Assembly: GCA_033762295.1 (NCBI GenBank)
Contig: JANRLW010000084.1
Span: forward strand, 1 to 64,000
Origin: Capsulimonadales bacterium
GTDB lineage: Bacteria > Armatimonadota > Armatimonadia > Armatimonadales > Armatimonadaceae
Length of the DNA: 64,000 nucleotides
Direction of reading: 5' to 3'
The translations under genes and the position numbers were made by a program. This document shows, one piece after another, positions 42,901 to 44,314 of the stretch (its first letter is position 1; each line of letters opens with the position of its first letter). Under the pieces are notes generated by a model. It was not told where the DNA came from. It saw nothing but the letters and a program-made list of their open reading frames with translations, and made no database searches.

Positions 42901-43389
42901 GTCGTTCGCGGTGACGACGTGGACGCCGCGTCCGGCGATGGCGTTCAGGTAGGTGGCGAGCGTACACATGAGGGTTTTGCCCTCGCCGGTCTTCAATTCG
43001 GCGATGCGCCCGTCGTGCTGTACCATGCCTCCGATCAACTGAACGTCGAAATGGCGCATTCCGAGCGTGCGGCGACCGGCCTCGCGGCAGGCGGCAAAGG
43101 CCTCCGGCAGAATTTCGTCCAGCGACTCATTGATCGCCACACGCAGGGCATTGGCTTCGCGGGTGCCGCGTACGGCTTCCCGTTCCTGACTTTCGAGCGC
43201 CTCCTCGTTCCCGCGCGACTCCAGGTTCTTCTTGAAGCGTTCGCGGAACTCGTCGGTTTTGGCGCGAAGCTGTTCATCGGTCAGTTCCTGGAACTGTGCT
43301 TCGAGCGCATTGACCTTGTCGACGACTTTTCGATAACGATTGACGTCGCGTTCGTTTCCATCAAACAGTTTTTTTAATAGTTGTAGCAT
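39907..43389 (-). CDS. secA: Preprotein translocase subunit SecA
   Basis: [53 protein letters not shown]; C-terminal SEC-C [13 protein letters not shown]. Confidence 0.98.
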   Translation of the reverse strand: [1160 protein letters not shown]

Positions 43390-43514
43390 TTTTCTTCCGG
43401 CAGGCAGCGTAACAGGACCGGCGAGAACCGTTCACGAAGGCGATCCGTGACGGCGTCCCGTCGGCGACGAATGGCGATAGGAAAGCGTGCAGCAGGGGCT
43501 CCGCTTCGAAAGGG

Positions 43515-43991
43515 TTACGCGGCAGCGGGGGGTGCGCGGGGCGGCAGCGACGGTCGTCCCTCGGGCGACGGGAGGGCATTTTCGGGCGCAGGCAAGGCGG
43601 CCAGACGCAGATCATCCGGGACGAGAAAAACCACACGGCGCGTCAGGCGCAGCGCGATGTCGGTCAGAGGACGGGTATCCGCGCCGGTTCCCTCGATCGG
43701 TTCCTTCTCCGGCGCGGGAAGAAACCGTTCCTCCTCGGATTCGCAGGGTTCGGGCGACTCCTCCGGGCGGCGCGGCTGGCCGTTGGCCCGGTCACCGGAC
43801 GGACGTTCCGGACGCGGTGGGGTTTCCCCTCGTCCTTCCGTCAACAAAAAACCGGCGGTTCCCCCATGAGGCAGCGTGCGAATCAGGGCGTTCAAAACCA
43901 CGGACGCCATCACCGGCGACAGTAACAGCGTTGAAAGCAAAACCACCGGACCGAAAGTCCGGGCAGGCTGACGATGCGAAAAGCGGCTCAT
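43515..43991 (-). CDS. secA leader ORF, candidate RAPP-type translation arrest peptide
   Basis: Basic N-terminus plus hydrophobic segment, long Pro/Glu-rich spacer, ends ...PPRAPPAAA*; 125 nt upstream of secA; extended -10 TGgTACAAT at 44041-44033. Confidence 0.65.
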   Translation of the reverse strand: MSRFSHRQPARTFGPVVLLSTLLLSPVMASVVLNALIRTLPHGGTAGFLLTEGRGETPPRPERPSGDRANGQPRRPEESPEPCESEEERFLPAPEKEPIEGTGADTRPLTDIALRLTRRVVFLVPDDLRLAALPAPENALPSPEGRPSLPPRAPPAAA

Positions 43992-44314
43992 AAGCGGTCC
44001 CGATAACGGGAGGTTCCTCCGGGAACCCGACTATTGTACCATGCGCGATTTCCGAACGTTCCCGCCGTTTTCACGGTCGGACGAGAACCGTCCGGGATTT
44101 CCCACTGCCGCTGTGAAGAAATACCAATAAAAATACTTGTATAATTTTCAACCACTCATATATAACAATCACGGCTCGCCGCATTTCGGCCGATTTCGAG
44201 CAGTTAAAATTACCAGACTAATGTATGTATTTAAGGCTGGTTTTGCACGTCATTAGCGGGGAACATTGCGTGCTATAATCAGTCGATTCGATTGAGGACG
44301 AATTAGCGACGCCG

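Follow-up and report, generated by a model that had tools for sequence, protein, structure and literature searches.

Leaders with RAPP-like motifs encoded before secA and secDF have been grouped as the RQH family by Fujiwara et al. (Fujiwara et al., 2024; PMC10987492). Three Armatimonadaceae proteins, WP_184199750.1, MBC8103941.1 and MBC8142143.1, are entered in its supplementary file 9 under the name uA_RQH_Armatimonadales; the main text does not contain the word 'Armatimonadales', which appears only in supplementary files 8 and 9. Within the phylum, the constructs of the paper cover only uA_RQH_Fimbriimonadales, and no experiment or construct on uA_RQH_Armatimonadales was found in it; for the latter group, the sections of the text examined also give no mRNA structure. 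The uA_RQH_Fimbriimonadales peptide arrests ribosomes of B. subtilis in vitro and of E. coli in vivo, and behaved inconsistently between systems (PMC10987492). In the RQH peptides that have been tested, arrest occurs when the third codon of the motif occupies the P site; for one RQH leader, the gene downstream is induced as a stem-loop is opened. In the structures of ApdA/ApdP, the A-site proline is held by the carbonyl of the alanine (PMC7897499, PMC10951233), and RAPP by itself does not always suffice for arrest (PMC7897499). Sec monitors typically have long spacers, with 131.5 for the long form of SecM and 133 for VemP.

The leader described here lies on the minus strand of the window, a 64,000-nt stretch of DNA analysed as a whole. 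The original prediction proposed a 158-aa ORF 125 nt before secA, behind its own promoter and ending in PPRAPPAAA, and all coordinates of this ORF were reproduced. The ORF, P0001, occupies 43515..43991 (-); its translation places RAPP at residues 152-155, and its TAA stop is separated by 125 nt from the secA ATG at 43389. The downstream gene (39907..43389, -) encodes a protein of 1160 aa that scores above cut-off for NCBIfam PRK12904 and TIGR00963, and would be the regulated gene. It is the single secA copy found in the source genome (G000), and its best named relatives, an Armatimonas sp. and an Armatimonadaceae record, are 63-66% identical. No Pfam or NCBIfam family matched P0001, and a search of 43300-44350 against Rfam with E up to 1 returned no match. 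Upstream, a divergent gene (44315-45151, +) encodes a DUF6777 protein with a C-terminal PEP-CTERM sorting signal.

The original prediction left undecided whether the family had been described, and it is in fact listed. P0001 aligns over its full length with H7Z41_15310 (= MBC8103941.1) with an E value of 4.4e-6 and 55/162 identical residues (34%), so the family is already catalogued as uA_RQH_Armatimonadales, although P0001 itself is not among the three listed rows. Like the members of that group, P0001 is an unannotated ORF of fewer than 300 aa directly upstream of secA on the same strand, with an N-terminal signal or TM segment by hydropathy (the choice between the two resting on the invariant proline described below) and a C-terminal RAPP-like motif conserved in at least three members of the order. 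Its assignment to the order Armatimonadales follows the SecA relatives and the homology to a listed member. uA_RQH_Fimbriimonadales, from the same phylum, shares with P0001 the secA target and a signal, spacer and RAPP-like tail, but belongs to a different class, and by eye its N-terminus is unlike that of P0001. ApdA/ApdP share the RAPP core and the expected mechanism, with RAP in the P site and proline in the A site; they precede secDF in Actinobacteriota/Alphaproteobacteria, whereas P0001 precedes secA in Armatimonadota, and the comparison here covers the core motif. With E. coli SecM (RAGP), P0001 would share the logic and the target gene, that is, a signal, a long spacer, a stall and a helix over the secA start. 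It differs in carrying RAPP without the FxxxxWIxxxxGIRAGP / WIxxxxGI element, and its predicted helix is long-range, across a 125-nt multiloop. The lack of SecM similarity proposed at the outset was borne out, as PF06558 matched neither P0001 nor the 94%-complete genome while the E. coli control was positive.

The first 29 residues of P0001 (43905..43991, -) form a probable Sec signal peptide, with a basic N-region, a hydrophobic core, Pro26 and a VMA end; hydropathy is ~2.0-2.3 across residues 13-33. This N-terminus aligns with the predicted signal of H7Z41_15310 in the table of PMC10987492, where the listed homologues are given as signal sequences according to SignalP-6.0 or DeepTMHMM. The basic N-terminus and hydrophobic segment of the original prediction are present; the segment, described there as signal/TM, fits a cleavable signal peptide better than a TM helix, since Pro26 is invariant, and cleavage may occur at about residue 29. 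The spacer (residues 30-151; 43539..43904, -) is poorly conserved and Pro/Glu-rich, with Pro+Glu making up 32% of residues 40-150, as had been proposed. It is not featureless, as it holds a semi-conserved hydrophobic patch that ends at the invariant Pro125. The RAPP codons lie at 43527..43538 (-), and by comparison with the tested RQH peptides the predicted stall would place Pro154 (43532-43530) in the P site, Pro155 (43529-43527) being the A-site residue. About 125 aa separate the signal end at residue 29 from Pro154, above the 30 aa used for the group.

Conservation was examined in family f1, which is taken to be Armatimonadaceae because the best named SecA relatives lie there. This family comprises 25 genomes and 24 secA loci, G019 being left out as it had no secA match. 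An intact leader with signal, spacer and R[AG]PP precedes secA at 23/24 loci (21 RAPP, 2 RGPP), as expected if the upstream ORF and its motif are kept in relatives; the motif lies 1-13 residues from the stop, and the stop 96-283 nt from secA. At the 24th locus (L120), which was excluded from alignment A1 and from folding, the N-terminus and the RAPP end lie in different frames; this points to assembly errors, because secA there is also in pieces. In A1 (23 sequences), Met1, Pro26, Pro125, Arg152, Pro154 and Pro155 are invariant against a mean column identity of 28%. The A1 rows were chosen for carrying R[AG]PP and the invariance of the motif is biased by this selection, so the database search serves as the independent check, in which 18/18 homologues of the leader end in RAPP. 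The motif codons vary synonymously among the f1 leaders, and in 2720 long ORFs of the source genome, a crude ORF set, RAPP is depleted (11 seen against 24.7 expected), RAPP and RGPP alike being depleted about twofold. RAPP is thus kept at the protein level, beyond chance.

These results bear on the reading of P0001 as an ordinary small secreted protein, with a secA promoter in the gap and an incidental RAPP. The rest of the mature part is conserved at only ~28% by column while R-x-P-P is fixed, and the depletion of RAPP in the proteome likewise speaks against an incidental motif. The promoter evidence points the same way. The extended -10 box of the original prediction, TGGTACAAT, was located at 44041-44033 (44033..44041, -), ~41 nt 5' of the P0001 start, and 21/23 f1 leaders have a TGnTAnnnT box in the 70 nt before their start, as do 15/15 aligned leaders of the sister family, f2. 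A promoter scanner that requires a -35 box reported no promoter at P0001. A weak extended -10-like sequence, TGTTACGCT, does occur within the gap at 43414-43406 (-), where it overlaps the 3' helix arm described below, and would favour the ordinary-protein reading; it is not conserved, and a box of this type is found in only 3/23 f1 and 0/15 f2 leader-secA gaps. This reading is considered very improbable. As a separate observation, a GGAAC/GGAAAC word recurs upstream of the -10 box at several f1 loci (~44063-44059 in the window), spaced 16-17 nt from its TG.

A second alternative accepts the stall and supposes that it senses a cue other than export, such as a metal, a metabolite or the folding of the hydrophobic patch in the spacer, in the manner suggested for RAPP leaders ahead of unrelated genes. 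RAPP/RGPP leaders precede genes of many functions (PMC12992588), and the source genome contains four more small ORFs (loci L201-L203) whose products start with a hydrophobic segment and have an R[AG]PP tail, at C18:39468-39941 (+), C18:4358-4750 (-), C21:4635-5075 (-) and C21:534-1019 (-). One of them precedes a HupE/UreJ gene, one has a weak DUF2946 match and precedes an ABC transporter, and the two others are Cys-rich and lie near a thioredoxin/YHS gene; these ORFs are possible metal-responsive arrest leaders. For the secA leaders themselves, a non-export cue is highly unlikely, as the downstream gene is secA at every f1 locus read and A1 has no column in which His or Cys reaches 90% conservation.

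The sequence between leader and secA suggests how a stall could reach the secA start. The original prediction noted a 7-bp inverted repeat linking the stop-codon region to the sequence before secA. The repeat is present, as GCGTAAC (43520-43514) and GTTACGC (43413-43407) with pair probabilities of 0.98-1.0, and forms the core of a longer predicted helix. The 5' arm (43514..43529, -) runs from the A-site codon through stop+1 and contributes 13 pairs with probabilities of 0.6-1.0. The 3' arm (43397..43413, -) covers secA -24..-8 and extends to the GG in GGAAG, a weak SD-like word at 43398-43394 (-). The last two pairs, at this GG, have p = 0.6, so that the 13-pair helix is predicted to cover secA -24..-11 firmly and the SD-like GG weakly. 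The two arms are brought close by two predicted inner hairpins of the intergenic multiloop, at 43482..43507 (-; p 0.67-0.95) and at 43417..43465 (-; most pairs p > 0.95). The 16S 3' end, which would give the anti-SD, was not found in the assembly; in the source genome, SD-like words are enriched at -16..-5, with 235/763 starts against 74/763 further upstream.

The effect of a stalled ribosome was modelled by equilibrium folding, without co-transcriptional folding, of the segment from P-site -60 to secA +35; the distance from the P site to the secA start codon is 143 nt in the window and 108-295 nt in the family. With the ribosome footprint blocked, opening secA -20..+13 costs 8.1 instead of 12.7 kcal/mol (-4.6), and three alternative footprints gave opening costs of 7.3-8.0 kcal/mol. 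A drop of 4.6 kcal/mol was matched by 0/100 leader-tail shuffles and by 2/85 control gene pairs, all of which were taken from the source genome only. The narrower window of secA -14..-4 opens by just 1.0 kcal/mol in the source locus. Across f1, the opening cost drops by more than 0.5 kcal/mol at 12/23 loci and rises at one, compared with 18 drops and 26 rises among the 85 controls. A drop of more than 3 kcal/mol was found at 7/23 f1 loci vs 3/85 controls, with a nominal p of 1.7e-4 that is overstated because the kin are not independent. Folded whole, 43370-43570 is not unusually stable relative to shuffles (z = +0.60). At the source locus, the modelling predicts that mRNA structure over the secA start is opened by the stalled ribosome, and the longer helix may supply a concrete mechanism that couples the stall to the secA start.

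Helices of differing sequence are predicted at 12/23 f1 loci, the source locus included (8/11 genera). As the arm sequences differ between genera, the arms were crossed between genera. At 12/23 loci, spanning 8/11 genera, pairing of the segment P+1..P+21 with the secA start region of its own locus ranks in the top 10% among cross-genus pairings; two control segments reach this rank at 1/23 and 3/23. The arms therefore co-vary in their complementarity. At the source locus the own pair ranks in the top 5% of cross-pairings and is not the best of 44; at L005 the arms form 18 perfect pairs.

A third alternative keeps P0001 as a true arrest peptide and does without the helix. SecM keeps its message tethered to the translocon, which places the synthesis of new SecA beside SecYEG, and the leader could act in the same manner, or could couple to secA by another route, such as protection from transcription termination or from decay. 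The predicted switch is absent at 11/23 f1 loci, including all four of genus g6 and all four of genus g7, and these loci keep RAPP; several of them have A/C-rich, weakly structured secA starts, and with gaps of 96-283 nt the stalled ribosome would be too far away to overlap the start directly. Complementarity that is specific to the genus in 8/11 genera, and that reaches the perfect pairing of L005, is on the other hand hard to explain without selection on the helix. Protection from termination also finds little in the source locus, where the scan detected no terminator-like site in the P0001-secA gap, in agreement with the original prediction of no terminator before secA. Tethering, or protection from termination or decay, as the main route is unlikely. 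The scan returned three terminator-like sites in all, compared with 2.0 expected by chance; one lies upstream, and two are hairpins in the signal-coding part of P0001, at 43962-43946 and 43931-43904 (-), a count at chance level.

With good confidence, P0001 is taken to be an RQH-class (RAPP) secretion monitor that controls secA via the helix. Transcription from the promoter upstream of the leader would yield a message carrying leader and secA, and the signal peptide of the leader would direct the growing chain to the Sec translocon. By analogy with the tested RAPP peptides, the ribosome would stall at RAP/P; it is predicted to cover the 5' arm of the helix, which would free secA -24..-8 and open secA initiation. 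Release by the force of export, and control of secA by it, are proposed on the model of SecM: when export works, the pull on the chain would release the stall, the ribosome would end three codons later, the helix would re-form and SecA synthesis would fall. Lagging export would in this way raise SecA.

A different leader type was identified in f2, which source names point to as Capsulimonadaceae. Here the leaders before secA (loci L023-L030 and L111-L118) are ~100-110 aa long, often end in FPHAxRAP, and terminate as RAP-stop in 16/16 loci, with 6 TAA, 7 TAG and 3 TGA. Database homologues end in RAP in 82/84 cases, found with a search profile that includes RAP and does not include the chain end. 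L024, whose signal is out of the RAP frame, was excluded from alignment A2 and from the promoter count and kept in folding. Many f2 leader messages are probably leaderless, because many starts lie 6-8 nt after the -10 box. At many f2 loci a GGAAC/GGAAAC word stands 18-19 nt before GTT and overlaps a TTGAC -35, a spacing that we take to resemble an ECF-sigma promoter. The opening cost drops by more than 0.5 kcal/mol at 8/16 f2 loci and rises at 3/16. A pairing of f2 leaders with their own secA start was considered and set aside as weak, with 3/16 for the downstream segment and 7/16 for the motif codons, where one genus accounts for six. A shared origin of the A1 (RAPP) and A2 (RAP-stop) leaders found no support, with an hhalign probability of 0.1.

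The sequences make the f2 RAP-stop leader a candidate for termination-type arrest. Such arrest, and pairs of elongation and termination arrest, have precedent with other motifs and in other phyla; in P0001 the A site would hold a Pro codon instead of a stop. RAP-stop was itself a query motif in PMC10987492, taken from ApcA clusters. The eight Armatimonadota rows in the table of that paper are five from Fimbriimonadaceae and three from Armatimonadaceae, and the table has no Capsulimonadaceae row, though Capsulimonas corticalis is in its genome list. A full-text literature search for 'RAP-stop' with 'arrest peptide' returned nothing, and one for 'Armatimonad' with 'arrest peptide' returned nothing related, as judged by titles and the beginnings of abstracts.

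Further leader types precede secA elsewhere in the Armatimonadota. In f5, identified by source names as Abditibacteriaceae, 12/14 loci (L124-L126, L181-L186, L189-L191) have a signal-bearing leader of ~130-190 aa whose conserved tail is free of proline; L183, L187 and L188 are not in A3. The tail consensus is LxxHEAAxLSGVRTNRRxN (L-x-x-H-x-A-x-L-[ST]-G-x-R-[TN]-N). Of 72 homologues, 63 match the strict pattern of the tail and eight others are close variants of it; a RAPP-like end occurs in none of them. This sequence pattern makes the tail a candidate for a new arrest motif. 'Abditibacter' occurs in the supplements of PMC10987492 only in the genome list, and for 'Abditibacter' with 'secA' the best 10 of 14 papers were unrelated, judged by title. 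The f2 and f5 leaders are not in the table of PMC10987492, whose Supplementary Fig. 1 may show more groups or orphans, and the supplements of PMC12992588 may list these leaders among RAPP/RGPP ORFs.

RAPP secA leaders with a different N-terminus are present at 3/3 loci of f9 (L137-L139), and a signal with an RFxRPP[TN] end at 4/4 readable loci of f16 (L150, L151, L192, L194). In f11, secA leaders that look like uA_RQH_Fimbriimonadales end in RDGP in 4/5 and otherwise in RAGP. L193 has no upstream DNA and was dropped. At the other 53 loci (47 + 6), this screen did not find a plausible leader with a signal and a RAP-type end; the screen gave one spurious pattern match (L173), and four loci had less than 500 nt upstream. 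The secA genes of some of these families are unusual in size. Frames of 2200-2600 aa, about twice the usual length, are found in G083, G128, G107, G153 and G058, likewise in G095, G043, G092, G067 and G054, and in others of f5 and f16; together with a match that ends near residue 190, these long frames suggest that f5/f16 secA may carry large insertions such as inteins.

The observation itself is confirmed: P0001 and its RAPP end are real and kept across f1, where such leaders very probably act on secA as arrest peptides. The predicted helix model and two uncatalogued leader types, the RAP-stop leaders of f2 and the tail of f5, are new here. A group of three rows in a supplementary file is extended to a feature of the whole family, and a testable switch is supplied by which a stall may act on a start codon at a distance of 108-295 nt; the tail of the Abditibacteriaceae leaders offers a candidate for a new arrest motif. 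With confidence slightly above even, the sequences further suggest that the slot before secA in Armatimonadota is filled by several unrelated leaders with differing stalling chemistry: RAPP elongation arrest with a helix re-invented genus by genus in Armatimonadaceae, RAP-stop termination arrest in Capsulimonadaceae, a proline-free tail in Abditibacteriaceae and, further, RPP[TN] ends.
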